Below, in pieces: positions 4,495 to 22,443 of a DNA stretch of 64,000 nt. Source of the DNA: an uncultured Actinomycetes bacterium (lineage in GTDB: Bacteria; Actinomycetota; Thermoleophilia; Gaiellales; Gaiellaceae); contig CAVQWS010000013.1 in the NCBI GenBank assembly GCA_963717725.1, positions 448-64,447 on the forward strand, given 5' to 3'. Below the pieces are notes generated by a model. The model ran no database searches, was not told where the DNA came from, and was given only the letters and a program-made list of their open reading frames with translations. Position numbers and translations under genes: made by a program. Position 1 is the first letter of the stretch; the number at the start of each line of letters is the position of its first letter.

Positions 4495-7419
4495 ATGGCC
4501 GCCGACCGCAAACTTCTCGCCGCAGCATTTGCCGCCATCGCCTTTCTGACGGCGGGCCCCGCTCGTGGCGCGGTAACGCGCCCGACCCAGACCGCGCCAG
4601 CCGCCGGCGCGGTCGTCCAATTCCTTCCCTCGTTCGCGTGGACGCCGGTCGCGGGCGCCGACAAGTACGAGTTCCAGATCAGCGCCGACGCCGGCATGAA
4701 CTCGCCGGTGCTCGGCAGCGGCAAGGACGACTTCTTCACGCGCAACACGCGCGCGACGCTGCTGAAGACGATCCCGAACGGGACCTACTACTGGCGGGTG
4801 CGGGCGACCAATGCCACCGGTGGGATCTCGAACTGGACCGAGCCGCGCTCGTTCAGGAAGCTCTGGAACCTGCAGCCGGCGCTGCAGAGCCCGAGCTCCG
4901 GCGACTCGCTGACATTCCCGACGAGCCCGGTCGTGCTGACGTGGTCGGGGGTCCCCGGTGCGGCGCACTACCTCGTCTCGGCCGCGAGCGACCCGAGCCT
5001 CGGCTCGCTCGTCCTCAAGTACGGGAACCAGGACGATCCGAAGGGGCCACCTAACGTCGCGGCGACCTCCGCTGCGATCACCTCTTCGCTGGCGCCGGGG
5101 TCGTACTACTGGAGCGTCACCCCCGTGGACGCCGAGGGCAACCGCGGCGTCTCGACTCCGGTCGCCTCCTTCAACTGGCTCTGGCCCTCGGCGACGGCGA
5201 CGCAGCTCGAGGACCTGAACCCCGCGCCGGAGGCGTACGACCCACGCTTCTCGTGGAATCCGATTCCGGGCGCTGCGCGGTACGAGGTCGAGGTCAACTC
5301 CTCATCGGACTTCACGCCCGGCTCGAAGGTCTGCTGCGACGGCGCGACGATCGCGACCTCGATCTCGCCGACCGAGGTGCTGAAGGACAACGTCTTTTAC
5401 TGGCGCGTCCGCGCACTCGATCCCGACGGCAACGCCGGCGTCTGGAACTACGGCGGCTCCTTCACGAAGACGTTCGACAAGGTCGCGCCGGCGGGCCCGG
5501 TCACCGGCACGAGCATCAAGAACGTCCGCATGCGGGACAACCTCGTCGACCCCGGCACTGACGTCGACACCGGAACCGCCGGCTACCAGACACGTGTGCC
5601 GGTCGTGCGGTGGGACCCCGTGCCCGGCGCGGCCAGCTATGAGGTCGAGGTCGTGCCGTGGACGGGCGCGATCTGCGACTGGGGTATCCCGAACCCCTAC
5701 ATCAAGAAGACGGCCGTCCCCCAGTGGACACCGCTGTCGAGCACCAGCTCCAACCCCGTCACCTGGCAGGGGGCGCTCGCCGAGGACGGGCTGCAGATCG
5801 TGCCGGGGGAGTGGTGTGTGCGCGTCCGCGCGCGGGCCGATCGCGCGCCGGGGAACCAGGAGGTCTGGGGCGACTACACCTACCTGTCGAACGGCAGCAC
5901 GGACACGTCCGAGGAGGTCGGTGAGGCGTTCAAGTGGACGGCTTACCCGGACCCGACCGACGCGTCTGCGTCGGCCGGCTGCGTGAGCGGGATTCGCGTC
6001 TACCCATGTGCCGCCGACTACAGGCTGCCGCAGACCGGCACGACGATCGGCCAAACGCCCCTCTTCACGTGGAACGCAGTCGCCGGGATGAACAGCTACT
6101 TCGTCGTCGTGGCCAAGGACGCGAACTTCAGCAACATCGTCGACGAGGCATTCACGCAGATTCCCGCCTATGCACCGCGGAACTCGCTCAAGCCGACGAC
6201 GTACAGCGACGAGACGACGCTCTTCTACTGGGCGGTCCTGCCGGCAACGGTCGCCGGCGGTGATGACGCGCCGCCGCTCTCGGTCGCCAGCGCTGCGAAG
6301 GGCTCGTTCCAGAAGCAGTCGACTCCGCCGGCCCTGGTCTCGCCGAGCGCGGTCCAGGCCTTCCTCGACCAGCCGACGTTCCGCTGGACGCCGACGCTCG
6401 GCGCGCGGCGCTACCGGCTCCAGGTCGCGGCCGACCCGACCTTCGGCAGCCCGCTCGACGACGTCGTCACCGACGCGACCTCCTACTCGAGCGACACGAC
6501 CTACCCGGCAGACACCGTGCTCTACTGGCGAGTCCGCGCGGACGACGAGAACCTGACCGGCCTCACCTGGTCCGCGACGGGAACGTTCCAGAAGAAGCTC
6601 GCCGCGCCGGTCGCGAGCGCCTCGAACCCGACCCAGGGCGAGTCACTTCCGGTCTGGGCCTGGAGCTCCGTGCAGGGCGCCGCCTCGTACGACCTGTCGG
6701 TCGACCAGCCGGACGGTTCGCACCGCGACTACTCCGACATTCGTACTCCGGCGGCCTCGTTCATCAAGATGACGGGCACCGGCGTCTGGCACTGGCGCGT
6801 CCGTGCCGAGTTCCCCAAGGACTTGACTGGCACCGTGCCCGGGCCCTACATGGCGACGCAGTCGTTCACCCGAACGATCGGCGAGCCGGCGAACGCGAAG
6901 ACCGACAGCGCGAAGGATCACGTCCTGCTCAGCTGGGATCCGCGCCTGGGAGTGAAGGAGTACAAGGTGCAGATCGCATCGAGCCCCGACTTCAGCCACG
7001 TCGTGGAGACGGTCTCGACGGACAATCCCAGCTACGCCCCCACGATGACCTCCTACGGTTACACCACGTCGAGCACGCTCTACTGGCACGTTGCAGGCGT
7101 CGACGAGGACCGCAACCAGGGCGACTGGTCGCAGGCCCAGCAGATCCGCCTGCTGCCGCGCCTGCGTGTCTCCGTCAGCGGCCTCGCGCGGCCCAAGCGG
7201 TCGAGCACCGTCCGCGTGACGGTGATGGACACGCTGGGCAAGCGGCTCTCCGCCGCCAAGGTACGCCTCACGGGAGTCGGTGTCCGGCCGGTGACCGGGA
7301 AGACGAACCGGCTCGGCCAGGTGGTCTTCAAGGTGCGGCCGAAGAAGAAGGGCAAGCTGTTCGTCAGCGCGACCAAGTCCGGTTTCCAGCCGGCGTATGG
7401 AACGCTGAAGGTGCGATGA
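4495..7419 (+). CDS. Secreted multi-repeat surface protein: signal peptide, eight ~95-aa FN3/Ig-like modules, and a C-terminal carboxypeptidase-regulatory-like beta-sandwich
   Basis: ATG 4495 gives the signal peptide 'MAADRKLLAAAFAAIAFLTAGPARG'. Eight modules each carry a W-x2-[VP]-x-GA-x2-Y anchor and a YWRVRA-like end. The tail is 'VRVTVMDTLGKRLSAAKVRLTG...GQVVFKV'. Confidence 0.85.
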   Translation: MAADRKLLAAAFAAIAFLTAGPARGAVTRPTQTAPAAGAVVQFLPSFAWTPVAGADKYEFQISADAGMNSPVLGSGKDDFFTRNTRATLLKTIPNGTYYWRVRATNATGGISNWTEPRSFRKLWNLQPALQSPSSGDSLTFPTSPVVLTWSGVPGAAHYLVSAASDPSLGSLVLKYGNQDDPKGPPNVAATSAAITSSLAPGSYYWSVTPVDAEGNRGVSTPVASFNWLWPSATATQLEDLNPAPEAYDPRFSWNPIPGAARYEVEVNSSSDFTPGSKVCCDGATIATSISPTEVLKDNVFYWRVRALDPDGNAGVWNYGGSFTKTFDKVAPAGPVTGTSIKNVRMRDNLVDPGTDVDTGTAGYQTRVPVVRWDPVPGAASYEVEVVPWTGAICDWGIPNPYIKKTAVPQWTPLSSTSSNPVTWQGALAEDGLQIVPGEWCVRVRARADRAPGNQEVWGDYTYLSNGSTDTSEEVGEAFKWTAYPDPTDASASAGCVSGIRVYPCAADYRLPQTGTTIGQTPLFTWNAVAGMNSYFVVVAKDANFSNIVDEAFTQIPAYAPRNSLKPTTYSDETTLFYWAVLPATVAGGDDAPPLSVASAAKGSFQKQSTPPALVSPSAVQAFLDQPTFRWTPTLGARRYRLQVAADPTFGSPLDDVVTDATSYSSDTTYPADTVLYWRVRADDENLTGLTWSATGTFQKKLAAPVASASNPTQGESLPVWAWSSVQGAASYDLSVDQPDGSHRDYSDIRTPAASFIKMTGTGVWHWRVRAEFPKDLTGTVPGPYMATQSFTRTIGEPANAKTDSAKDHVLLSWDPRLGVKEYKVQIASSPDFSHVVETVSTDNPSYAPTMTSYGYTTSSTLYWHVAGVDEDRNQGDWSQAQQIRLLPRLRVSVSGLARPKRSSTVRVTVMDTLGKRLSAAKVRLTGVGVRPVTGKTNRLGQVVFKVRPKKKGKLFVSATKSGFQPAYGTLKVR

Positions 7420-7517
7420 AGCCGGTGAAGAAGCAGAAGCCGAAGGTGCTGCGCATCTGGCGCGTCTTCGAGTACCGCCGCCCGGTGCCGGTGCGCCGGC
7501 CGCGCTTCACGATCTAG
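7416..7517 (+). CDS. Possible 33-aa highly basic micro-protein, translationally coupled to the repeat protein
   Basis: ATGA overlap (ATG 7416-7418, upstream TGA 7417-7419). Sequence 'MKPVKKQKPKVLRIWRVFEYRRPVPVRRPRFTI'. Too short for the ORF track and no homology recognised. Confidence 0.25.
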   Translation: MKPVKKQKPKVLRIWRVFEYRRPVPVRRPRFTI

Positions 7518-7521
7518 TCCG

Positions 7522-7917
7522 CTAGTCCCAGGTCCAGTTCGGATCCGGCGTGTCGCCGTCGCCCGGGCCCGTGTTCGGCGCGCCGACGGCGATCACCTCT
7601 GCGCCGTCCGGGCCGCCCCTGATCCCGCGCATCACGTGCGGCGGCACGCGGACGGCGTGGAATGGCCGCAGCTCGATCTCGTCGTCGCCGACCTTCATCT
7701 CGGCCGAGCCGGTGACGAGCACGTAGATCTCCTCCTGCTGCTTGTGCCGGTGCCCGTGTGCCTTCGCGCCGGGCGCGAAGCGCAGGTAGCTGACGCCGCA
7801 GTGCTCGCAGTTCAGGGCAACTCGCCCGAAGCGGAGGTTGAACTGCTCCGGGTCGAGCCCGAGGTTCGGCGCCTGGTCCTCGACCTGGGTCAGGTCGACG
7901 TGGCTGTAGTCGCTCAT
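7522..7917 (-). CDS. Cupin domain protein
   Basis: Internal ATG of track ORF 7522..8799. Cupin metal motif 'GHRHKQQEEIYVLVTG ... HAVRVPPHVMRG'. Confidence 0.75.
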   Translation of the reverse strand: MSDYSHVDLTQVEDQAPNLGLDPEQFNLRFGRVALNCEHCGVSYLRFAPGAKAHGHRHKQQEEIYVLVTGSAEMKVGDDEIELRPFHAVRVPPHVMRGIRGGPDGAEVIAVGAPNTGPGDGDTPDPNWTWD

Positions 7918-13073: not shown

Positions 13074-14006
13074 CTACGAGATCACGAGCGCGAGCAAGGC
13101 TTTTTGCGCGTGCAAGCGGTTCTCGGCCTCGTCCCAGACCGCCGAGCGCGGCCCGTAGAGCACGTCTTCGGTGATCTCCTCGCCGTAGTGGGCGGGGAGG
13201 CAGTGGAGGACGATGGCGTCGTCGTTCGCGAGCCCCACGAGCTCCGCGTCGATGCCGAACCCGGCCAGATCGCGCAGCCGCCGCTCGCGCTCTTCCTCCT
13301 GGCCCATGCTCGTCCAGACGTCGGTGTAGAGGACGTCGGCGCCCTCCGCGGCCGCGCGTGCGTCGGTGGTGAGCTCGACCTCGCCGCCGGTCTCGCGGGC
13401 GAGCTCGACGGCCTCCGGCCACACCTCGTAACCCTCGGGCGACGCGGCCACGAAGGGCGCGCCGAGCTTCGCGCAGGCGACCATCAGCGAGGCACAGACG
13501 TTGTTGCCGTCGCCGAGGTAGGCGACCCGCACGCCCTCGATTCGCCCGAGCCGCTCGCGGATTGTCATCACGTCGGCGAGCGCCTGGCACGGGTGCGAGA
13601 TGTCGGTCAGGCCGTTGATCACCGGGATCGAGGCGTGCGTGGCGAGCTCTTCGACGTCGGCCTGATCGAACGTGCGGATCATGATCCCGTCGACGTAGCG
13701 CGAGAGCACCGTCGCGGTGTCCTTGAGCGTCTCGCCGCGGCCGAGCTGGAGGTCGCCGGCGGCGAGGTAGAGCGCGTGGCCACCCAGCTGGGTCATCCCG
13801 ACCTCGAACGAGACACGGGTGCGGGTCGAGGGCTTCTGGAAGATCATCGCGAGCGTGCGGCCGGGGAGGAGGTGATGCTCCTCGCGCCGGGCCTGCCGCT
13901 GCTTGAGGTCGTCCGCGAAGTCGAGCACCGACTCGAGCTCGTCGCGGCTCCAGTCGGCGACGCGGGTGAAGCTGCGGCCCTTGAGGCTCTCGGCGATTGC
14001 GCTCAT
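13074..14006 (-). CDS. argF: Ornithine carbamoyltransferase
   Basis: ATG 14006 in track ORF 13074..14180. Motifs 'STRTRVSFE', 'HPCQALAD', 'HCLPAHYGEE'. Confidence 0.92.
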   Translation of the reverse strand: MSAIAESLKGRSFTRVADWSRDELESVLDFADDLKQRQARREEHHLLPGRTLAMIFQKPSTRTRVSFEVGMTQLGGHALYLAAGDLQLGRGETLKDTATVLSRYVDGIMIRTFDQADVEELATHASIPVINGLTDISHPCQALADVMTIRERLGRIEGVRVAYLGDGNNVCASLMVACAKLGAPFVAASPEGYEVWPEAVELARETGGEVELTTDARAAAEGADVLYTDVWTSMGQEEERERRLRDLAGFGIDAELVGLANDDAIVLHCLPAHYGEEITEDVLYGPRSAVWDEAENRLHAQKALLALVIS

Positions 14007-14019
14007 CCGAGCGCGGATC

Positions 14020-14631
14020 TTACGGGTACGAGCCTTCGAGACCGGCCTGGTCGAGCAGGTCGCGCAGTCGCGAGAGGCCGGTGAACATACGGCTCTTGAT
14101 CGTCCCGAGTGGCTGGTCGAGCCGCTCCGCGAGCTCGCTCTGGGTGAGGCCGCCGTAGTAGCCGAGCTCGAGCGCCTCACGCTGCTCGGCCGGGAGTTGC
14201 GAGAGCGCCTCCTGCACGAGCCTGCGGCGGAAGCCGAGCGAGGCCTCGTCCTCCGCGGTCGTCGGGGCGGCGGGCTCGGGCGCGCGCTCGAGCGGCTCGC
14301 CGCGGCGGATGTCCTCGCGGCGGACGAGGTCGACGGCGCGGCGGTGGACGAGCGTCAGGATCCACGTGCTCGCCTTCGCGCGCTCGGCCAGGAAGCGGTC
14401 GGCGTTCCGCCAGACGCCGAGGAACGCCTCCTGGACGGCGTCCTGGGCAAGCGTCTCGTCGCGCAGGATCCGCAACGCGAGCCCGTAGGCGACGCGGCCG
14501 AAGCGGTCGTAGAGCGCGGCCAGCGCGTCGTCGTCGGAGGCCGCGACCAGTGAGAGCAGCGCCTCGTCGGAGAGCCGCGCCAGGTCACGCGACGGGCGCG
14601 CGGGCGGCGGCTGCACCGTCAGCACGGTCAC
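14020..14631 (-). CDS. ECF (sigma-70 family, SigK-like) RNA polymerase sigma factor
   Basis: C-terminal part of track ORF 14020..16404. Region 2 'DAVQEAFLGVWRNADRF', region 4 'GLTQSELAERLDQPLGTIKSRM'. The GTG start (14629-14631) overlaps the anti-sigma TGA; alternative GTGs at 14625 and 14616. Confidence 0.85.
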   Translation of the reverse strand: MTVLTVQPPPARPSRDLARLSDEALLSLVAASDDDALAALYDRFGRVAYGLALRILRDETLAQDAVQEAFLGVWRNADRFLAERAKASTWILTLVHRRAVDLVRREDIRRGEPLERAPEPAAPTTAEDEASLGFRRRLVQEALSQLPAEQREALELGYYGGLTQSELAERLDQPLGTIKSRMFTGLSRLRDLLDQAGLEGSYP

Positions 14632-15290
14632 GAGACCGCCTTGCTGGCGGCGAGCGGCTTGCTCGTCGGCTGGTCGACCCCGCCGGAGCGTTCGAGCGTG
14701 ACGGCGACGACCGAGCCGGGCTTGACGGGCCGTTGGATCCGCAGCACGGTCGACCCGGAGAAGAGCCCCGCCCGTTTGGCCGCGCCGTTGCGGATCACCC
14801 AGGCCTCGTAAGTCTTGCCCTCGGGCGCGCGCGGGACGGTGAGCGCGATCGCGGCCGTGCCGTCTGGAGCGACCGCCAGCGTGCCGCGATCGCCCATCGG
14901 CACGAGCTGCGCGCCGGGTTCCGCGAGCACGGACGCGAACGCGTCGTTCGTTGCCGGGCGAGTGGCCGCCCAGACGCCGACGCCGATCGCGACGGCCGCG
15001 GCAACCGCAGCCGCGGCGGCGAGGGGAGCCGTCCACGAGCGGCGGCGCGGCAGCGAGACGATGTTCGGGCGCTCGGCCTTCGCGTCCTCCAGGATCCGCT
15101 GCTTCAGCTCCGGCGGCGGCGGAGGGCCGACGGCGCCGTAGGCCAGTGCCGCGGTCGCTTCGCGCAGGCTCGCGAGCTCCTCGCGGCAGGCCTCGCACGA
15201 AGCAAGGTGTTCCTCGAAGGCGCGCTCCTCGTCTACATCTAGCGCGTCCATGGCGTAGAGCGCGACATCGGCGTGGGGATCTGCGGCCAT
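14628..15290 (-). CDS. Anti-sigma factor, RskA-like (zf-HC2, one TM, RskA C-terminal domain)
   Basis: 'EEHLASCEACREEL' zinc-finger-type anti-sigma motif, TM 'LAAAAAVAAAVAIGVGVWA', C-terminal 'GKTYEAWVIRNG...VAVTLERSGG'. Confidence 0.8.
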   Translation of the reverse strand: MAADPHADVALYAMDALDVDEERAFEEHLASCEACREELASLREATAALAYGAVGPPPPPELKQRILEDAKAERPNIVSLPRRRSWTAPLAAAAAVAAAVAIGVGVWAATRPATNDAFASVLAEPGAQLVPMGDRGTLAVAPDGTAAIALTVPRAPEGKTYEAWVIRNGAAKRAGLFSGSTVLRIQRPVKPGSVVAVTLERSGGVDQPTSKPLAASKAVS

Positions 15291-15974
15291 CTAGAAATAG
15301 TAGGGCGCGACCTGAAGGGCGCCCAGCGCGTACCAGACGCCGAAGGACAGGCTGATCACGCCCAGCACCGGCGCGAGCGCCGGGAAGAGGCGGCCGACCC
15401 GCCCGCGCTCGAGCGTGAAGCCGAGGCCGGTCGAGAGCGCCGCCATCGAGAGTGCGGTGCAGAGCGCGAACAGGCCGAGGGCCGCGACCGCGATCTCCTG
15501 GTTGTGGATCGACGCCAGCAGCAGGACGCCGACGCCCGCGCTGCCGCCCATCCCATGCACCAGGCCGATCCCGTAGGCCTGCAGCGGCGAGCGCGCGCGC
15601 CTGGGGGGATGGCGGTGCGTGTGGAACGCGCCGCGGTGCCAGCGCAGAAGCAGCGAGACCGCGAGCGCGACGATCACGAGGCCGACCGTCGTCTCCGCTG
15701 CCTCCTGCGCTGGCTCGGGCAGGTAGCTCTGGAAGAGCACGATCGGCAGCCCGAAGGCGAACAGGGTCGTCGCGTGGCCGAGGCCCCAGCAGAGCCCGAG
15801 CCGGGCGGCCGCGCGGGTGGCGCGCTCGCGGGTGCCGGCGATCAGCGTCGAGACGGCGGCGAGGTGATCGGGATCGGTCGCGTGGCGGAGGCCGAGCACC
15901 ATCGCGACCAGGCAGACGAGCGCGAGCGTGGCGCCGTCGGAGAACGATGCAACCCAGGTGTCGAGTCCGAACAC
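15291..15974 (-). CDS. NicO/RcnA-type nickel/cobalt transporter-like membrane protein
   Basis: 'RHATDPDHLAAV' (H-x4-DH signature), 'GLGHATT', 'HGMGGSAGV'; six TM segments. Confidence 0.75.
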   Translation of the reverse strand: MFGLDTWVASFSDGATLALVCLVAMVLGLRHATDPDHLAAVSTLIAGTRERATRAAARLGLCWGLGHATTLFAFGLPIVLFQSYLPEPAQEAAETTVGLVIVALAVSLLLRWHRGAFHTHRHPPRRARSPLQAYGIGLVHGMGGSAGVGVLLLASIHNQEIAVAALGLFALCTALSMAALSTGLGFTLERGRVGRLFPALAPVLGVISLSFGVWYALGALQVAPYYF

Positions 15975-15977
15975 GGT

Positions 15978-17273
15978 TCAGCTCACTTTCGGGACGGCGC
16001 GGAAGGTCATGGCGATTCCCGCGACGAGGATGACGAGTGCGCTGGCGGCGGGCAAGAGCCGAACCAGCCGGCCTTCGAAGGAGACGCGGCGGAACGCCGT
16101 GCGCGCGACAACCGCTGCGAGGCCGATGCCGGTGATCGTGAGCGCAAGGCCCGCGCTGAAGGCGAGGATCAGCAGCAGACCGAAGGCGACTCGGTGCAGC
16201 GAGATCGCCGCGAGCAGGACCACGAGCGCGGAGGGGCAGGGAAGGAGGCCGCCCGAGACGCCGACTGCGAAGAGCGAGCGGAAGCTGGTGCCCTCCTCGC
16301 CGTGGTGGTGGTGATGGTGGTGCTGCCGGCTGTGCCGCCAGCGGGAGCGCAACACCGACGCGCCGATGCCGACCACGAGCAGGCCCGAGACGAGGTTCAA
16401 CCACGGGTAGAGCCGGTCGGGGACGATGAACTGCGAGAGCGCGAGCGTCACCAGGCCGAGGCTGAAGACGCCGATCGTGTGCGTGATCGTCACGATCAGC
16501 CCGAGCAGCGCCGCGTGCCGCGGGGTGCCGCGCTGTCCGACCAGGTAGGCAGTGATGATCGTCTTGCCGTGCCCGGGCGAGAGCGCGTGCGCGGCGCCCC
16601 AGAAGAGCGCGGCCGCGAGCGAGGCGAGGATCACGAGCAGGCTCAGGTGCGACTGGCCGACGAGCGAGGCGAAGCCGGAGTCCGCGATCCGGTCCGGCGC
16701 CTGCAGGCTGGCTCCGTCCGAGAGCGGGGGAGCGACGTCGGCGCCGGAGCCAGGGGAGAGCTCAGCGGACGCCGATGTCACATCGAGCGGGCTCTCGAGC
16801 ATGTCCTTCGGGTAAGCCCGGAGCTCGTGGCTGCGGCTCGGCGTGCGCGCCCCGATCACGATCTCCTTCCAGCCGATCCGGTTGGCGTAGTTCGAGTCGC
16901 GGTAATGGAGCCGTGCCGGCCCGGAGAGCCGCGGCCCGGCCAGTACCACCTCGATCCGCGTCGTCCTGAGCCCGCCCGCGCCCGGTGGGTGGGCGAGCGC
17001 CTGCCCGAGCGGGACGAGTCGTGCCGGCCGCCCCGCCACCGTCAGGTGGGCGTTGGAGGCGATCCGCCGCGCGTAGGCCCTGGCGTCGATGTGGCCTGCC
17101 TGGAAGGTCGGGATCTCGGCCATGTCCAGGACGTAGAGCACGTAGAGGCGGTGGCCCGAGACCTCGACGCGGCTGAACCGATTGATCGTGAAGTTGCCGA
17201 GCGGGTGCGCGGATGCCGCCGCCGGCGTGAGCAGCGCGGCCGCCACTGCGAGCAGAAGGACGAGGCGCTTCAT
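15978..17273 (-). CDS. Exported N-terminal domain fused to a NicO/RcnA-like transporter with a His-rich loop
   Basis: ATG 17273 (ATGA overlap with the TPR gene). Signal peptide 'MKRLVLLLAVAAALLTPAAASA', 'HPLGNFTINRFSRVEV', transporter part 'HALSPGHGKT', loop 'RWRHSRQHHHHHHHGEEG'. Confidence 0.8.
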   Translation of the reverse strand: MKRLVLLLAVAAALLTPAAASAHPLGNFTINRFSRVEVSGHRLYVLYVLDMAEIPTFQAGHIDARAYARRIASNAHLTVAGRPARLVPLGQALAHPPGAGGLRTTRIEVVLAGPRLSGPARLHYRDSNYANRIGWKEIVIGARTPSRSHELRAYPKDMLESPLDVTSASAELSPGSGADVAPPLSDGASLQAPDRIADSGFASLVGQSHLSLLVILASLAAALFWGAAHALSPGHGKTIITAYLVGQRGTPRHAALLGLIVTITHTIGVFSLGLVTLALSQFIVPDRLYPWLNLVSGLLVVGIGASVLRSRWRHSRQHHHHHHHGEEGTSFRSLFAVGVSGGLLPCPSALVVLLAAISLHRVAFGLLLILAFSAGLALTITGIGLAAVVARTAFRRVSFEGRLVRLLPAASALVILVAGIAMTFRAVPKVS

Positions 17274-18559
17274 CGCAGCTCCCTCGTCGCCACAGGCGCC
17301 CACAGCACCGAGAAGCGCGGGTTCAGCGCCAGCGCACGGCCGAGCCAGCTCCTCGCTGCGGCCCGGTGACCGAGGCAGTGCTCGATCTCGCCGCGGTGGA
17401 AGTACTTGAGCGCATCGAGCGTGCCAAGCCGGAGGGCGCGCCTGGAGTAGCGCAGCGCCTCGCCGCAGTGCCCGGTTCGCGCGAGCGCCCAAGCCAGGAC
17501 GTCGTCTCCGTCGATCGACGGGCGCTCCCGCTGCGCGTGCCGAGCGAGCGCGAGCGAGGCCGAGAGGCGAATGCCGTGATCGACGTCGAAGAGCGCCGTC
17601 TCGAGGTCGGTCTGGACGCCGTTGGCGACGAGCAGTCGCTCGATGACGCCGATCAGCGCGTACTGCTTAGCGGCTTCCGCCGCTCGGCCGTCCGAGCCCT
17701 GGAGGTCGCCGAGCATCGCCACGTACTGCGGCAGCGGAATCCGGTCGACCGCTTCCTGCTCCGCCGCGATCGCCTCCTGGACGTGTCCGCGGCCGTACTC
17801 GGCCCAGGCCAGCGCGTCATAGGCCGGCGCGTAGCCGGGGAAGGCCCGCACGGCGGCGTGCGCCTGCGCGAGCGCCGGCGCGACCCGGCCGACCGAGAAC
17901 GCGGCCCTGCTCAGCTGCACGCGGGTCCACGCCTCGATCTCTCCCTGTCCGAGCGAGGCCTCGAGCGCAGACCGCAGCGCCGAGCGGGCGCCGGCCACGT
18001 CACCGAGCAGCAGGCGCGCGTGTCCGACCCGCGCGTACGACGAGACGTCGGGCCGCAGCCCGGACATCGTGTCGAACGCCTGGAATCCTTGCTTGTAGCG
18101 CCCCAGCTCGACGAGCGCGTCGCCGATCACGCCGTAGTTGCGCGCCGTCGTCGGCGAGATCGCCCGCGCGCGGCGGCCGAGCGCGAGCGCCTCGCGGAAG
18201 CGGTGCCGCGAGAGCGCGAGCGAGCCGAGGCCGCTGGTCGCGATCAGGTCGCGCGGTGCGAGGCGCAGCGCCCGCCGCAACACCTCGTCCGACTTGGTGT
18301 AGTAGGTCGGGTCGCCCGTCTCGCGGGCCCGCTGCTGGTACGCGAGCCCGAGCGCGTCGAGCGAGCGCACGTCGTCGCGGCTCCCGCGCAGCTCGTTCTG
18401 GAGTTTCGCGATCTGCGTCGACGTGTCATCGGCCGCGGGCGGCCGTGCGACCAGGGCGGAGCTGGCCTGCGGCGAGCCGTGCAGCGCCCCGCCGAGGAAC
18501 AGGGCGGTGACCGTCAGCCCCGCTGCCACTCCTCCGATCAGCAATCTCCGTGCCTTCAT
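17270..18559 (-). CDS. Exported tetratricopeptide-repeat protein
   Basis: Signal anchor 'MKARRLLIGGVAAGLTVTALFLGG', then repeated 34-aa Ala/Leu/Tyr TPR periodicity throughout. Confidence 0.8.
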   Translation of the reverse strand: MKARRLLIGGVAAGLTVTALFLGGALHGSPQASSALVARPPAADDTSTQIAKLQNELRGSRDDVRSLDALGLAYQQRARETGDPTYYTKSDEVLRRALRLAPRDLIATSGLGSLALSRHRFREALALGRRARAISPTTARNYGVIGDALVELGRYKQGFQAFDTMSGLRPDVSSYARVGHARLLLGDVAGARSALRSALEASLGQGEIEAWTRVQLSRAAFSVGRVAPALAQAHAAVRAFPGYAPAYDALAWAEYGRGHVQEAIAAEQEAVDRIPLPQYVAMLGDLQGSDGRAAEAAKQYALIGVIERLLVANGVQTDLETALFDVDHGIRLSASLALARHAQRERPSIDGDDVLAWALARTGHCGEALRYSRRALRLGTLDALKYFHRGEIEHCLGHRAAARSWLGRALALNPRFSVLWAPVATRELR

Positions 18560-18576
18560 GACACTCCTTCAGCCGG

Positions 18577-18613
18577 GACGGAGGGGCCCGCCGGCTGGCC
18601 GGGCCCCTCCGTC
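18577..18613 (-). other. Intercistronic 14-bp GC hairpin between the DUF4331 and TPR genes
   Basis: GACGGAGGGGCCCG (18577-18590) and CGGGCCCCTCCGTC (18600-18613) are perfect complements around a 9-nt loop. No U-tract on the coding (minus) strand. Confidence 0.45.
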
Positions 18614-18626
18614 GTCTGGTCGCCGC

Positions 18627-20132
18627 CTAGGGCACCTCGTAGCCCTGATGCGGATTCGCGACGTACGGGAACGTGTTGGAGAGCGACACGTCGTTGGCGT
18701 CGACTCCGTCACCGACGAGGTTGTTCGGGCTCAGGTTCGGCAGACCGAACGCCCCGTTGAGGAACGAGCCGTAGCCCTGGCCGATCGCCCGCAGCTCGAT
18801 GTCGACAACGTCGTCCCCCAGCCGCCGCCCGTTCGGGAAGCCGCAGAGGTCGGCGGCGAGGACGGCCATCCGGTCGGGCGCGGCCGGGCTGGCCGTGCCG
18901 CCGGGACAGGCGCCGTTCACGCCGGGCTTGATCGCCGTGTTGAGCCTGAGCAGATCCGACTGCGTCGAGCCCGTGAAGTTCAGCCCGGGCACGCCCGTGA
19001 GCAGGATCAGCGAGAGATCGTTGCGCCCTGTCTCGGCAATCGGTGCCAAGGCGCCGCCTGCATGACCGGCAGGTGGAGCGCCGTAGAGCACGTTCTCGAG
19101 GTGAGCGACCTCGGGAGTCGTGTAGTAGTGGGCGAACTGGCTGTCGTCAGCCGGATCGTCCCGGTTCCAGACGTCCTTGTCGCCCAGCGGGATCACGACC
19201 TCGTTGATGAGCGGGTTCCCGAGCCGGGAGACCTGCACCCACGGGCCGTGCCCGTCCTTCGTCCCGTCCGCCTTGAGGACGGTCTTCTGCTCGCGCTCGG
19301 CGCTTGCATAGATGCCGACCGTCGTGCTGGGAGCCTGCACGAGCTGCGAGATCGGCACGCGCAGGACGATCGAGTGCGTGTTGTAGTTCTTCAACGCGTC
19401 CACGCCCGCCGCCGCAGGCAGCGGAATCAGGTGGAACGGGTTGAACGGACGCAGCCCGGCCAGGTCGAAGACCGAGCCGAGGTCGACGTAGAACGGGTCG
19501 TCCCGCTGGCCGGCGAAGACCTTGATTCCGCCGGACAGGTTGGTGGCCGCCGCCGACGCGAGGGCGGCATAGTTCGGCGTCGAGCGGGGCCCGATGTTGT
19601 CGGGCGGCGTCGGGATGTTGCTGCCGAGGACGACCGGATCCTTCGCGTTGCCGTTCTTGTTCAACCGGACACGCGTGAGCGTGTAGGTCTGCGGCCGGTT
19701 CCAGTTCGGGCTGTCGAGCGAGGTGATCGGCCCGGTGTTGTAGAGGAATGTGTCCTCGTTCCGGGTCTGCGTCTGGAAACGGAACTGGTAGCCGATGTCG
19801 GCGTGTCCGTCCCCGTTCTGGTCGATCCCGATCTGGTAGAGAGCGCTGTCGTCGAAGCTGTAGAAGTTCGGCCCGCTGGCCGGTGCCTCGAGCGGGATGT
19901 AGTTCGCGATGATCGTGACCGTGTTCGTGTCGTCAGGGCTGACGAACGCGTACAGGTCGGTGTTGTCCGCTCGCGGGTCCTGGCTGATCAGCGGCGCCTC
20001 GGAGTGGCTGGACGCCTTAGCTGCGCTAGGCCCGGGAGCGTGGGTCAGGATCACCATGATCGCCAGCGCTCCGAGCGCGAGTGCGGCGGCCATGGCAACC
20101 GGTTTGCGGATACGTGGTACGGCTGCGTGCAT
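18627..20132 (-). CDS. Secreted DUF4331-family protein
   Basis: Signal peptide, then the family-typical N-terminus 'SSHSEAPLISQDPRADNTDLYAFVSPDD'. SD GGAGGAGG lies upstream of the ATG. Confidence 0.85.
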   Translation of the reverse strand: MHAAVPRIRKPVAMAAALALGALAIMVILTHAPGPSAAKASSHSEAPLISQDPRADNTDLYAFVSPDDTNTVTIIANYIPLEAPASGPNFYSFDDSALYQIGIDQNGDGHADIGYQFRFQTQTRNEDTFLYNTGPITSLDSPNWNRPQTYTLTRVRLNKNGNAKDPVVLGSNIPTPPDNIGPRSTPNYAALASAAATNLSGGIKVFAGQRDDPFYVDLGSVFDLAGLRPFNPFHLIPLPAAAGVDALKNYNTHSIVLRVPISQLVQAPSTTVGIYASAEREQKTVLKADGTKDGHGPWVQVSRLGNPLINEVVIPLGDKDVWNRDDPADDSQFAHYYTTPEVAHLENVLYGAPPAGHAGGALAPIAETGRNDLSLILLTGVPGLNFTGSTQSDLLRLNTAIKPGVNGACPGGTASPAAPDRMAVLAADLCGFPNGRRLGDDVVDIELRAIGQGYGSFLNGAFGLPNLSPNNLVGDGVDANDVSLSNTFPYVANPHQGYEVP

Positions 20133-20199
20133 GGGCTGGATGCCTCCTCCCCCCGGTGGTTGTCGAGCCTGGTTCGCAGCGGGGCCGCGAACGGTTCGG

Positions 20200-21106
20200 C
20201 TACGGGTGGATGCGCGTGCCGGCCCGGCCCTCGAGCGCCTTGCCCAGAGCTGCGGGCGAGGTGATCAGGGCCTCGTGGCCGGTGGCGCGGACGAACTCGA
20301 CCGACGCCTCGACCTTTGGCCGCATCGAGCCGGCCGCCAGCTCGTGGATGAGCGCCTCGGCCTCGTCGATGGAGAGCTCGCGCAGCTCCTCCTGGCTCTC
20401 GCCGCCGAAGTCACGGGAAACGGCGGTGACCTCGGTCAGGATCACCAGCCGGTCGGCGTCGAGCTCGCGGGCCAGCAGGGAGGAGGCCCGGTCCTTGTCG
20501 ATCACCGCGTCGATGCCGGCCAGGTGCTCGCCCGCGCCTGGTCGCCGGGATGCCGCCGCCGCCGCAGGCGACGACGATCGAGCCCGAGGCGAGCAGCGAG
20601 CGGATCGCGCCGAGCTCGACCACCTCGAGCGGCTTCGGCGAAGGCACGACGCGGCGCCAGCCCCGGCCGGAGTCGTGGACGACCTGCCAGCCGCGGTCGC
20701 GCTCCAGCGCACGCGCCTCGTCCTCGCCGTAGAACGGCCCGACCGGCTTGGTCGGCTCCGCGAAGGCCGGGTCGTCCTCGGCCACCAGCACGTGGGTCAG
20801 CAGGCAGACCACCGGGCGGCCGGCGACGGGCTCGAGCTCGCTTTCGATCAGCGCGCCGATCTCCGCCTGGGTCTGCGCGACCGCGAGGTAAAGCGGCAGC
20901 GGCGGCACCTCGTCGGCGGCGCGTTCCTGACGGAGCAGCTCGTTGCCGACCTGCGGGCCGTTCCCATGCGTGACGACCAGCTCGCCGCCCAGGAGCGGCC
21001 GCAGCGCGGCGCAGGCCTCCCGCAGATTCGCGCGCTGCTCGGCGGCCGTGCCGCGCTCGCCGGGCCGCATCAGCGCGTTCCCGCCGAGCGCGACGACGAT
21101 GCTCAC
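20200..21106 (-). pseudogene. arcC: Carbamate kinase interrupted by a +1 frame change
   Basis: N-terminal 'VALGGNAL...THGNGPQVG...ACGGGGIPA' is in track ORF 20411..21106. C-terminal 'EHLAGIDAVIDKDRASSLLA...GSMRPKV...GTRI' is in track ORF 20200..20712. The 907-nt span is not a multiple of 3. Confidence 0.8.
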
Positions 21107-22443
21107 ACGAGTGCTTTGTCGCCTATGAGGCCGTGCTCGGTGAGGACGTCGGCCAGTGTCGGCTCGCCGACTTCCTGGAGCTTGTACGTCACCCGCAGCG
21201 CGGGCACGTCGAAGTCGATCAGCTTGCGCAGGTCGATCGGCGTTCCGATCAGCACGAGCTCGGCGCCCGAGGCCTCGATCGTGGCCTTGAGGTCGTCCAT
21301 CTGCTTGCGCCCATAGCCCATCGCGGGCAGCAGCGCGCCGACGTTCGGGTAGTCCACGAAGGTCTGCGCGATCGAGCCGACGGCCGCGGAGCGGGGGTCG
21401 ATCAGCTCGGCCGCGCCGTTCGCCTTCGCGGCGAGCACGGCTGCGCCGTAGGTCATCTCGCCGTGGGTCAGCGTCGGCCCGTCCTCGATCGCGAGCACGC
21501 GCTTGCCGGCGATGTCGGCGATGTCGCCCTCGACGTGGAACGGCGAGGCCGCGAGCACGATCTTCGCCCCCGGGTTGTGGGTGCGGATCGAGTCGAGCAC
21601 GGCGTCGATGCCTTCCTGGGTGGCGCTGTCGATCTTGTTCACGACGCAGACATCGGCCATGCGCAGATTGGTCTCGCCCGGGTGGTAGCGCAGCTCGTGG
21701 CCGGCGCGGTGCGGGTCGACGACGACGATGTGGACGTTCGGCTTCACGAACGGCGTGTCGTTGTTGCCGCCGTCCCAGAGGATCACGTCCGCCTCCTGCT
21801 CGGCGCGGTCGAGGATCGCCGCGTAGTCGATCCCGGCGAAGACGAGGTTGCCCTCGGCGATGTGCGGCTCGTACTCCTCGCGCTCCTCGATCGTCGCGTC
21901 GGCGGCGTCGAGGTCCTCGTAGCGCTCGAAGCGCTGGACGGCCTGCTTGGTCAGATCGCCGTAGGGCATCGGGTGCCGCAGGACGGCGACGCGCTTGCCC
22001 GACTCGCGCAGCAGCGCGGCGACGTGGCGCGTGGTCTGGCTCTTGCCCGAGCCGGTGCGGACGGCGCAGATCGCGACCGCCGGCTTGGACGAAGTCAGCA
22101 TCGTCTCGCGCGGCGAGATCAGCCGGTACGAGGCGCCGGCCGCCAGTGCGCGCGAGCCGACGTGCATCACGTGCTCGTGCGTCACGTCGGAGTAGGCGAA
22201 GACGACCTCGTCGACCTCGTGCTTGGCGATCAGCTGCTCGAGCTCGGCCTCGGGCTCGATCGGGATCCCGTCGGGGTAGAGCTCACCCGCCAGCTCGGGC
22301 GGGTAGACGCGCCCGGCGATGTCCGGGATCTGCGTCGCCGTGAAGGCGACCACCTCGTACTCCTCGCGGCCCCGGTAGACGAGGTTGAAGTTGTGAAAGT
22401 CGCGGCCGGCCGCGCCCGCGATCAGCACCCGTGTCCTGGTCAT
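21103..22443 (-). CDS. Cyclic 2,3-diphosphoglycerate-synthetase-like P-loop protein
   Basis: 'VLIAGAAGRDFHNFN' N-terminus and P-loop 'RTGSGKSQT'. Its stop overlaps the arcC GTG (GTGA). The family assignment is from memory of proteins annotated this way. Confidence 0.6.
   Translation of the reverse strand: MTRTRVLIAGAAGRDFHNFNLVYRGREEYEVVAFTATQIPDIAGRVYPPELAGELYPDGIPIEPEAELEQLIAKHEVDEVVFAYSDVTHEHVMHVGSRALAAGASYRLISPRETMLTSSKPAVAICAVRTGSGKSQTTRHVAALLRESGKRVAVLRHPMPYGDLTKQAVQRFERYEDLDAADATIEEREEYEPHIAEGNLVFAGIDYAAILDRAEQEADVILWDGGNNDTPFVKPNVHIVVVDPHRAGHELRYHPGETNLRMADVCVVNKIDSATQEGIDAVLDSIRTHNPGAKIVLAASPFHVEGDIADIAGKRVLAIEDGPTLTHGEMTYGAAVLAAKANGAAELIDPRSAAVGSIAQTFVDYPNVGALLPAMGYGRKQMDDLKATIEASGAELVLIGTPIDLRKLIDFDVPALRVTYKLQEVGEPTLADVLTEHGLIGDKALV

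Follow-up and report, generated by a model that had tools for sequence, protein, structure and literature searches.

The window analysed here is a stretch of 64,000 nucleotides from an uncultured soil bacterium of the Gaiellaceae (Actinomycetota; GenBank assembly GCA_963717725.1, contig CAVQWS010000013.1, positions 448 to 64,447). Its minus strand carries a compact cassette of six genes which encode, in the order of reading, a DUF4331 protein, a tetratricopeptide repeat (TPR) protein, a large RcnA/NicO-like permease, a short NiCoT-like permease, an RskA-type anti-sigma factor and a SigK-like extracytoplasmic function (ECF) sigma factor (Table 1). The mature end of the DUF4331 protein is predicted to be a tip of the nickel/copper-binding type and, as far as can be judged from sequences, the cassette probably represents a route of trace-metal capture and movement that has not been described before.

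A preliminary description of this DNA had already named the six genes and their families, and it had listed their junctions and placed a hairpin in the gap between the DUF4331 and TPR genes. The open reading frame (ORF) list, the translations, Pfam and NCBIfam bear out the genes and the families, the coordinates bear out all the junctions, and fold energy and z-score do the same for the hairpin. At four of the five junctions the genes overlap or lie 0-3 nt apart. The TPR and large permease genes overlap by ATGA (17273-17270), 3 nt separate the two permease genes (15975-15977), no nucleotide separates the short permease gene from the anti-sigma gene (15290/15291), and the anti-sigma and sigma genes overlap by GTGA (14631-14628), the GTG start of the sigma gene overlapping the anti-sigma stop. 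The fifth junction is the gap of 67 nt that contains the hairpin (18560-18626). Homologues align starting at residue 1, which supports the chosen start codons. The G+C content of the region is around 70%; between positions 13500 and 20700 a scan detected neither a sigma-70-like promoter nor a canonical terminator, and an Rfam scan detected no riboswitch, the NiCo type included.

Table 1. Genes and signals of the cassette, with positions in the window
Feature	Position	Strand	Length	Basis
DUF4331 protein	20132-18627	minus	501 aa	ORF list and translation, stop-free
TPR protein	18559-17270	minus	429 aa	ORF list and translation, stop-free
Large permease (RcnA/NicO-like)	17273-15978	minus	431 aa	ORF list and translation, stop-free
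Short permease (NiCoT-like)	15974-15291	minus	227 aa	ORF list and translation, stop-free
RskA-type anti-sigma factor	15290-14628	minus	220 aa	ORF list and translation, stop-free
SigK-like ECF sigma factor	14631-14020	minus	203 aa	ORF list and translation, stop-free
ECF-type promoter	20167-20200	minus		motif from aligned upstream DNA of relatives
Intercistronic hairpin	18577-18613	minus		RNA folding, place shared with relatives

The DUF4331 protein matches the whole of the Pfam profile PF14224 (positions 1-421, from residue 41 onwards) with an E-value of 5e-136 and 454.7 bits, the cut-off being 27. Residues 1-40 form a signal peptide that ends in AKA, and the site between AKA and SSH obeys the -3/-1 rule for signal peptidase, so that the predicted mature amino terminus is Ser-Ser-His, encoded at 20012-20004. 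The amino-terminal Cu(II)- and Ni(II)-binding (ATCUN) motif has the form NH2-X-X-His, and the DUF4331 protein shows its sequence features: a predicted free amino terminus, a histidine at mature position 3 and no proline at position 2. The family is most conserved at its very beginning, where the motif [S/T/A]-S-H-x-E-A-P stands. The X-S-H mature tip occurs in all 82 DUF4331 ORFs of the fetched loci that have an N-terminus. There it stands directly after a signal peptide whose residues -1 and -3 are small (Sec class) or after the initiator methionine (leaderless class), and in the leaderless class the first residue of the tip permits removal of the methionine. Among 150 family representatives clustered at 50% identity, 127 have the strict motif and 6 close variants are still X-X-H (SSHRDAP, SSHNDAP, SNH and GGH); the remaining 17 are truncated or frameshifted, and no full-length DUF4331 without the tip was found among the 150. 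His43 is the only invariant histidine of the protein.

The family is a large one: clustering at 50% identity gives 6,192 clusters or more, and members occur in bacteria and archaea. A full-text literature search found no paper naming DUF4331 or PF14224. Regarding the structure, we found no sequence match in the Protein Data Bank (PDB), and a Foldseek search with an AlphaFold 2 (AF2) model (pLDDT 86.6, pTM 0.86) gave no PDB match with an E-value below 1e-3, all TM scores being below 0.3. The tail that carries the tip is of low confidence in the model, as would be expected for a flexible metal-binding end.

The TPR protein is recognised by several Pfam TPR models and starts with a membrane anchor or signal segment; its invariant residues include H119, D147, E151, Y155, R177 and D327. 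It is the constant partner of the DUF4331 proteins that bear a signal peptide. The hairpin between the two genes has a 14-bp GC stem (18613-18600 paired with 18590-18577) and a loop of 9 nt, it folds at -42.7 kcal/mol (z = -3.0), and no run of T follows the stem. Most of the related loci have a hairpin of different sequence at the same position, and in some loci its stem reaches into the start of the TPR gene; in 25 of 34 loci the hairpin exceeds 95% of random 90-nt windows of the same locus in strength. Its place and strength are thus conserved and its sequence is not, which argues for a function. This is probably that of a partial terminator or a 3'-end stabiliser, which would raise the output of DUF4331 over that of the membrane components.

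The large permease scores 35.9 bits with Pfam NicO (cut-off 27.7). Its best subfamily is the RcnA type (NF007454, E-value 1e-32), although the 113.4 bits of this match stay below the cut-off of 195, so that the protein does not qualify as RcnA itself, and the match covers only the membrane part. With RcnA it shares HAxxPGHGK, a His-rich loop and LPCP, to which it adds an N-terminal domain of around 180 aa. The membrane domain has six helices, with HALSPGHGK, an H7 cytoplasmic loop and LPCPSA. The signal peptide ends in ASA, directly before HPLGNFT, so that the mature protein starts with a histidine (His-1), and this is the case in all the homologues whose N-terminus was recovered.

Residues 23 to about 200 of the large permease form an exported beta-sandwich domain (AF2 pLDDT of about 90 or more over most of it). 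Its top Foldseek match is 9gce, the anglerase domain of Ang-1 with copper (probability 1.00, E-value 1.7e-3, TM 0.44), followed by the zinc-binding PA4063 and ZrgA. Compared with the sequences of the PDB, the whole permease gave only His-tag artefacts and the N-terminal domain alone gave no match. Anglerase domains have been proposed to catch metal for a permease (Franco Cairo et al., Nat Commun 2025, PMC12537917): the His-1 domains fused to HupE/UreJ-2 permeases bind copper and nickel at 60-220 nM, and Ang-1 has a Kd of 74 nM for copper and 220 nM for nickel (PMC12537917). In the model the large permease likewise appears to carry His-1 after its signal peptide on an exported beta-sandwich. 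The other anglerase feature, fusion to HupE/UreJ-2 (PF13795), is lacking; the membrane part matches NicO and DsbD_2.

The match to Pfam DsbD_2 (E-value 1.4e-8) and that of the membrane part to the CcdA structure 5vkv (probability 0.96) would also suit a cassette unrelated to metal, namely an envelope redox or folding module of the SigK-regulon type with a CcdA/DsbD/DipZ-like large permease. Furthermore, the sigma and anti-sigma factors are SigK/RskA-like, and SigK/RskA is redox-linked in M. tuberculosis (PMC7826278, PMC7509140). Nevertheless, we regard such a module as highly improbable. The large permease has a single cysteine, that of LPCPSA, which is a serine in several homologues, and its first repeat reads SPGHG; we rejected a thiol-disulfide role of the CcdA/DsbD kind, which requires a cysteine in each of the two PCxxP-type repeats. 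The sigma factor is without the two SigK cysteines, the likeness to CcdA is explained by the shared fold of the LysE-type superfamily, and all the metal-related evidence counts against this module.

The short permease reaches 30.4 bits with Pfam NicO, against a cut-off of 27.7, and 21 bits with HupE_UreJ_2. Residues 31-37, HATDPDH, are the NiCoT signature H-x4-DH, and a GLGHAT motif is also present. Both the PF03824 score and the signature place the protein among the NicO/NiCoT permeases. It resembles the N-terminal part of the HoxN/NixA/NicT transporters: BLASTP against a NicT equivalog aligned the signature region with 30% identity (E-value 1e-7), and the matches to TIGR00802 and NicT (E-values around 1e-7) are far below their cut-offs. 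With these scores, and with 227 aa against around 340 in the family, it is by its sequence a divergent short relative and not an equivalog.

Some 30-60 nt upstream of the DUF4331 start, where the preliminary description had proposed to look for an ECF promoter, such a motif is indeed found. It emerged when the DNA upstream of the DUF4331 genes of relatives was aligned (consensus cCGAACCG-N15-GCGAAyCAGG), and its two parts, CGAACC-N16-CGAAY, are an ECF-type pair of -35 and -10 elements. In the window the -35 element is CGAACC (20198-20193), the spacer has 16 nt and the -10 element is CGAAC (20176-20172); the promoter starts immediately past the arcC stop codon and ends around 40 nt before the DUF4331 ATG. 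The strict pattern has one match in the window, where 0.13 were expected. With a weight matrix built from 25 homologous promoter sites, no other site of the 64-kb window reaches 12 bits. In the whole assembly of 3.03 Mb it is the only one that reaches 19.8 bits, the lowest training score, and the runner-up has 17.8. As there is a single strong site in the genome, the sigma factor appears to control this operon alone, itself included.

A looser pattern (GAACC, 16-17 nt, CGAA) was scanned in 1.12 Mb of the fetched loci and gave 43 matches, 27 of them before DUF4331, sigma or short permease genes. Specifically, 19 lie just upstream of DUF4331 in 17 loci (the window among them); the neighbouring sigma gene is preceded by a match in 6 loci, and the short permease gene in 2. 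When a sigma gene and the operon next to it have a motif in common, this usually marks an ECF regulon as autoregulated, and the sharing of this one by the DUF4331 and sigma genes of relatives suggests such a regulon here. In two other Gaiellaceae (L015:12138 and L017:13604, our locus numbers starting with L) the short permease has its own copy, CGAACC-N16-CGAAC; the short permease of the window is translationally coupled to the large one and is without a promoter site of its own. Where DUF4331 paralogues stand in tandem in L004, L015 and L017, a separate ECF promoter serves each copy.

Regarding the regulators, the sigma factor contains Sigma70_r2 and Sigma70_r4 and reaches 90.2 bits with TIGR02937 (cut-off 42.9), as an ECF sigma factor should. 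Its best NCBIfam match is SigK (NF007228; ECF18/19), with 164 bits against a cut-off of 226; it is therefore not SigK proper, and it has no cysteine at all, the two conserved ones of SigK included. The anti-sigma factor is of the RskA type. It has an N-terminal HxxxCxxC zinc-finger domain (HLASCEAC), one transmembrane segment and an extracytoplasmic RskA_C domain, with 173.5 bits for NF052375 in NCBIfam (cut-off 100) and, in Pfam, 67.3 bits for RskA_C (cut-off 29.4) and 26.2 for zf-HC2 (cut-off 22.2).

The sigma gene is the last of the cassette, and the order anti-sigma, then sigma is the reverse of the usual one. Within the Gaiellaceae the pair accompanies the cassette in three arrangements: downstream of it with this same order and overlap (the window, L001 and L003), divergent upstream of it (L002, L004, L008, L015 and L017) and upstream on the same strand with the usual order (L072). 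A second ECF site that could serve the pair as an internal promoter was not found inside the cassette, where the weight matrix gave nothing of 12 bits or more. With its place at the 3'-end, the pair of the window thus has no promoter of this type of its own and must rely on the operon promoter, probably together with read-through from arcC.

The cassette is flanked on the same strand by the carbamate kinase gene arcC, of which only the C-terminal part is readable in a single frame, and a P-loop gene upstream (20200-22443), and by the ornithine carbamoyltransferase gene argF downstream (13077-14006). As argF starts 13 nt past the stop codon of the sigma gene and no terminator separates the two, the cassette appears to be embedded in an arcC-argF transcription unit. 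The linkage to arcC also exists in L001, L003 and L007. The P-loop gene has a weak match to the CobW/HypB/UreG domain (E-value 8.5e-6).

In order to follow the neighbourhood elsewhere, 80 DUF4331 loci from at least eight phyla, archaea included, were compared. A TPR gene is adjacent (within 2.5 kb) in 48 of the 80, 34 have a NicO-family permease no more than 6 kb away (among the 56 with adequate flanks, 29 do), and a SigK-like sigma gene lies within 3 kb in 23. The preliminary description had held that its proposal would be refuted if this neighbourhood were not conserved elsewhere; it is conserved across phyla. The partners differ strictly between the two classes of DUF4331. The 52 genes of the Sec class have a TPR gene (48) and the large RcnA-like permease (28) as partners, and never a twin-arginine translocation (Tat) escort, a small His-rich protein or a NicT/NiCoT permease. 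Near the 27 leaderless genes there are the twin-arginine escort (21), the small His-rich protein (15) and a canonical NicT/NiCoT permease (8), and neither the TPR gene nor the RcnA-like permease. One of these NicT genes scores 545 bits against an equivalog cut-off of 450. In the tree the leaderless class is one clade (100/100 support), so the split in partners is, on these sequences, one ancient event that was widely spread by transfer and not a repeated correlation.

Among the Acidobacteriota, L040 has, on the minus strand (6654-7754), a HupE/UreJ-2 protein of 367 aa whose signal peptide ends in ARA, directly before HE, that is, with the His-1 anglerase architecture. Its gene is divergent from DUF4331-TPR and adjoins a sigma/anti-sigma pair. 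Other DUF4331-TPR genes of this phylum adjoin TonB-dependent receptors (L029 and L061) or MgtE (L063). Most of the partner transporters of DUF4331 belong, by their sequences, to importer families.

The strict separation of the partner sets bears on another reading, which we consider unlikely. DUF4331 would be a metal client, that is, an extracytoplasmic nickel- or copper-dependent protein and possibly an enzyme, to which the permeases supply the metal where it folds. In the Sec class the RcnA-like permease would export the metal, the His-1 domain would hand it over and the TPR protein would hold the apo-protein; in the leaderless class NicT would import the metal, the small His-rich protein would load it and the twin-arginine escort would export the folded protein. 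An exporter-type family is indeed paired with Sec export and an importer family with Tat-type export, and piggy-back export by Tat, of which MelC1/MelC2 is an analogue, is typical of cofactor-loaded proteins. The size of DUF4331, its many invariant Arg, Asp and Asn, its fold with no match in the PDB and the HypD counts given below, which show no clear phyletic link to hydrogenase, would agree as well. However, as the leaderless class is a single clade the dichotomy counts as one event, the DUF4331-TPR genes of the Sec class also adjoin importers (His-1 HupE/UreJ-2 and TonB-dependent receptors), and no catalytic motif is known for the family.

It is also possible, although somewhat doubtful, that the DUF4331 proteins are extracytoplasmic nickel (or copper) metalloproteins of a new class, perhaps enzymes, with X-Ser-His as their active centre, two maturation routes and, in this lineage, a private sigma factor that runs the whole route. 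This doubt extends to the two routes together. One would be Sec export followed by metallation outside, through the TPR holder and the His-1 permease; the other would be metallation in the cytoplasm followed by Tat export on a piggy-back escort.

Several observations were made on the leaderless loci themselves. The leaderless DUF4331, which starts with Met-Ser-Ser-His, is preceded by a protein of around 95 aa with a SRRxFLK twin-arginine signal and a short conserved C-terminal domain; the gene of this escort lies just upstream of DUF4331 in L062, L066-L068, L070, L071, L032, L036, L041-L043, L048, L052, L054 and L057, and TatC is found nearby in the archaeal loci. This suggests that leaderless DUF4331 may be exported piggy-back by Tat. 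A protein of around 110 aa encoded after leaderless DUF4331 (L062:9393-9719) has no Pfam match and no signal peptide, and it has conserved His clusters. Its homologues in L039, L044, L051, L054, L060 and L066-L071, some of them with long His-rich or HGALE-repeat N-termini, make it a candidate cytoplasmic metal chaperone.

Before the escort-DUF4331 operon of L062, L067, L068, L071, L054 and L057 there is a second ECF-type motif, TGATCC-N16-CGAAT/CGTAG. The loci with this motif have a divergent SigK-like sigma factor of only 36-40% identity, and the -35 box co-varies with the sigma factor. The Bathyarchaeota loci L036, L041-L043, L048 and L052 have in common a block, GGAAAAACCGTTAAG, around 100-150 nt upstream of the escort gene, which may be an archaeal promoter or regulator site. 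Finally, the motif scan met two pairs of identical 34-mers on different contigs of the assembly (C7:8765-8798 and C8:12398-12431; C19:195849-195882 and C24:2247-2280), which could be repeats or redundant contig ends.

Tandem DUF4331 paralogues occur in L004, L015, L017, L019, L024, L034 and L044 and fall in different deep clades. The tree of DUF4331 cuts across taxonomy (L005, L010, L032 and L049): an acidobacterial copy is nested in those of the Gaiellales, a copy from the bacterial Aminicenantes stands among those of archaea, and one from the Chloroflexi forms a pair with one from the Nitrososphaerales. This points to frequent transfer of the module. Two apparent families without a Pfam match, of 358 aa and of 248-314 aa, were discarded as alternative-frame shadows of the NicT and sigma/anti-sigma genes.

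As for the metals that this organism handles, the two permeases of the cassette are the only NicO-type genes found in the genome, and neither CbiM nor HupE/UreJ was found in it, an absence that is provisional in an assembly 92% complete. HypA, HypD and a hydrogenase-like gene are present, which implies that nickel is needed. Urease and CobN were not found in the same 92% complete assembly, a Lar_N-like match is weak, and a search for the nickel superoxide dismutase (Ni-SOD) matched nothing in this genome, nor in any control genome. Within the genus, DUF4331 and NicO occur together in 12 genomes (adjacent to each other), DUF4331 alone in 2, NicO alone in 2 and neither in 9. Nickel is favoured by the family links to NicT, NiCoT, HupE/UreJ-2 and RcnA, and copper is possible, as Cu(II) is bound no less well by ATCUN and His-1 sites. 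Import is the favoured direction, given that most partner families are those of importers and that no other recognised secondary nickel importer was found in the genome.

The opposite direction would make the cassette a resistance operon for nickel/cobalt or copper stress, in which the sigma pair responds to metal stress of the envelope, the RcnA-like permease expels the metal and DUF4331 sequesters it outside, by analogy with CnrYXH-CnrCBA or RcnA/RcnB. This would fit the best subfamily of the large permease, the RcnA nickel/cobalt efflux type (E-value 1e-32), a high-affinity ATCUN-type tip suited to sequestration, and the patchy occurrence of the cassette in the genus (13 of 24 genomes), as is often seen for accessory resistance genes. 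Moreover, there are ECF groups linked to heavy-metal resistance, and ECF290 has an RskA-like anti-sigma factor (PMC7826278). We think it quite unlikely, since the partner transporters of other lineages are importers (NicT, HupE/UreJ-2 and TonB receptors), the short permease bears the NiCoT uptake signature, the genome, although equipped with hydrogenase maturation genes, yielded no other nickel importer family, the sensor domain is without His and Cys, and the RcnA match, with 113 bits, misses the curated cut-off of 195.

The explanation we favour, to which we would give an even chance, is that the cassette is a self-regulated extracytoplasmic module for the capture and import of nickel, possibly of copper; that the six genes form a single operon is a part of it and shares this chance. 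The operon would be read from the one ECF-type promoter, recognised by its own SigK-like sigma factor, which the membrane-bound RskA-type anti-sigma factor would restrain. An envelope signal would free the sigma factor and raise the whole cassette, sigma and anti-sigma factors included, which would be a positive loop with a built-in brake, and read-through from arcC could give a basal level of both regulators. DUF4331 would be exported by Sec, in excess owing to the hairpin after its gene, and would grip a nickel-type metal, Ni(II) or possibly Cu(II) or Co(II), with its free Ser-Ser-His (ATCUN-type) tip. The membrane-anchored TPR protein would hold it at the permease, the metal would pass to the large RcnA/NicO-type permease at its anglerase-like His-1 domain, and it would cross the membrane through this permease, the short NiCoT-like one, or both.

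The preliminary description had suggested a self-regulated periplasmic system of metal acquisition or detoxification with DUF4331 as its extracytoplasmic binding or processing component. Self-regulation is backed by the promoter motif common to the DUF4331 and sigma genes of relatives and by the single site in the genome. The link to metal gains from the two NicO permeases, the NicT, HupE/UreJ-2 and TonB neighbours elsewhere, the ATCUN-type tip and the Ang-1-like domain, and a role of DUF4331 as the extracytoplasmic metal-binding component fits the data; all this is support by comparison. The word periplasmic, however, is uncertain for an actinobacterial envelope.

Some points weigh against the capture and import module. 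The large permease is by sequence closest to RcnA, an exporter, and a His-rich loop says nothing about direction. DUF4331 has 58 invariant positions, with six Arg, several Asp/Asn and one His, and its size and pattern of conservation would suit a carrier and an enzyme alike. The very tight binding at ATCUN sites fits poorly with a hand-over, and it is in stress or resistance systems (such as CnrH) that ECF control is more typically seen, although FecI-type ECF sigma factors do control uptake. The RskA_C domain of the anti-sigma factor contains no His and no Cys, so that direct metal binding through such residues is unlikely. In the genus, DUF4331 and HypD occur together in 7 genomes, DUF4331 alone in 7, HypD alone in 7 and neither in 4, counts that incomplete genomes confound. 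Finally, the 31.7 bits of the promoter site are somewhat inflated, because the weight matrix contains this very site and a near-identical one; its uniqueness is unaffected.

The locus thus offers a compact hypothesis, with a defined metal-binding type of tip, partner proteins, a promoter and a sigma factor. If true, it would add to nickel/copper homeostasis either a protein-based system of trace-metal capture or a new metalloprotein with its maturation route, it would be relevant to abundant soil lineages that are hard to culture, and it would extend the anglerase idea from HupE/UreJ-2 to RcnA/NicO-type permeases.

Among the known systems, the anglerase-permease fusions (PMC12537917; 9gce) have the same architecture, in which the signal peptide leaves His-1 on an exported Ig-like beta-sandwich fused to a multi-helix permease, and a true His-1 HupE/UreJ-2 adjoins DUF4331-TPR in L040. 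They differ in that the large permease of the cassette is RcnA/NicO-like with a His-rich loop, not HupE/UreJ-2, and has no detectable sequence similarity to Ang-1, the TM score being only 0.44; the paper on anglerases (PMC12537917) says nothing of DUF4331, TPR partners or ECF control. The SigK-RskA systems (ECF18/ECF19) of M. tuberculosis and Yersinia (PMC7509140, PMC7826278) share with the cassette an ECF sigma factor and a single-pass RskA_C anti-sigma factor with a zinc finger, as well as a small, locally encoded regulon with a two-part promoter that in the relatives also precedes the sigma gene. In contrast, the sigma factor studied here stays at 164 bits against 226 and is without both signature cysteines, the gene order is reversed with the pair at the 3'-end of the operon, and the regulon consists of DUF4331 and permeases instead of the fasciclin proteins MPT83/70.

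The nickel/cobalt resistance systems CnrYXH-CnrCBA of Cupriavidus metallidurans and RcnA/RcnB of E. coli combine a dedicated ECF sigma factor or an RcnA-family permease with an exported accessory protein to handle nickel and cobalt. However, the cassette is without a resistance-nodulation-division (RND) pump and without a sensor of the CnrX/CnrY type, its exported partner is unrelated to RcnB, and its direction of transport is probably the opposite one. Serum albumin is an ATCUN protein, and RcnR, HypA and Ni-SOD are nickel proteins that use the N-terminal amine. As in ATCUN proteins, DUF4331 has a predicted free N-terminus with His3, the tip being kept whether signal peptidase or Met removal makes this N-terminus, whereas in DUF4331 the tip sits on a protein of around 460 aa whose fold has no PDB match. 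The malE-malF and hisJ-hisQ operons, which encode solute-binding proteins, have an intercistronic hairpin. The cassette resembles them in its strong stem-loop after the gene of the soluble component and before the membrane genes, with plausibly unequal expression; it differs in having no ATP-binding cassette transporter, and the role of its hairpin is a putative one. What is specific to the window is the order-swapped anti-sigma/sigma pair at the 3'-end, the CGAACC-type -35 element, the regulon of a single site and the position between arcC and argF.

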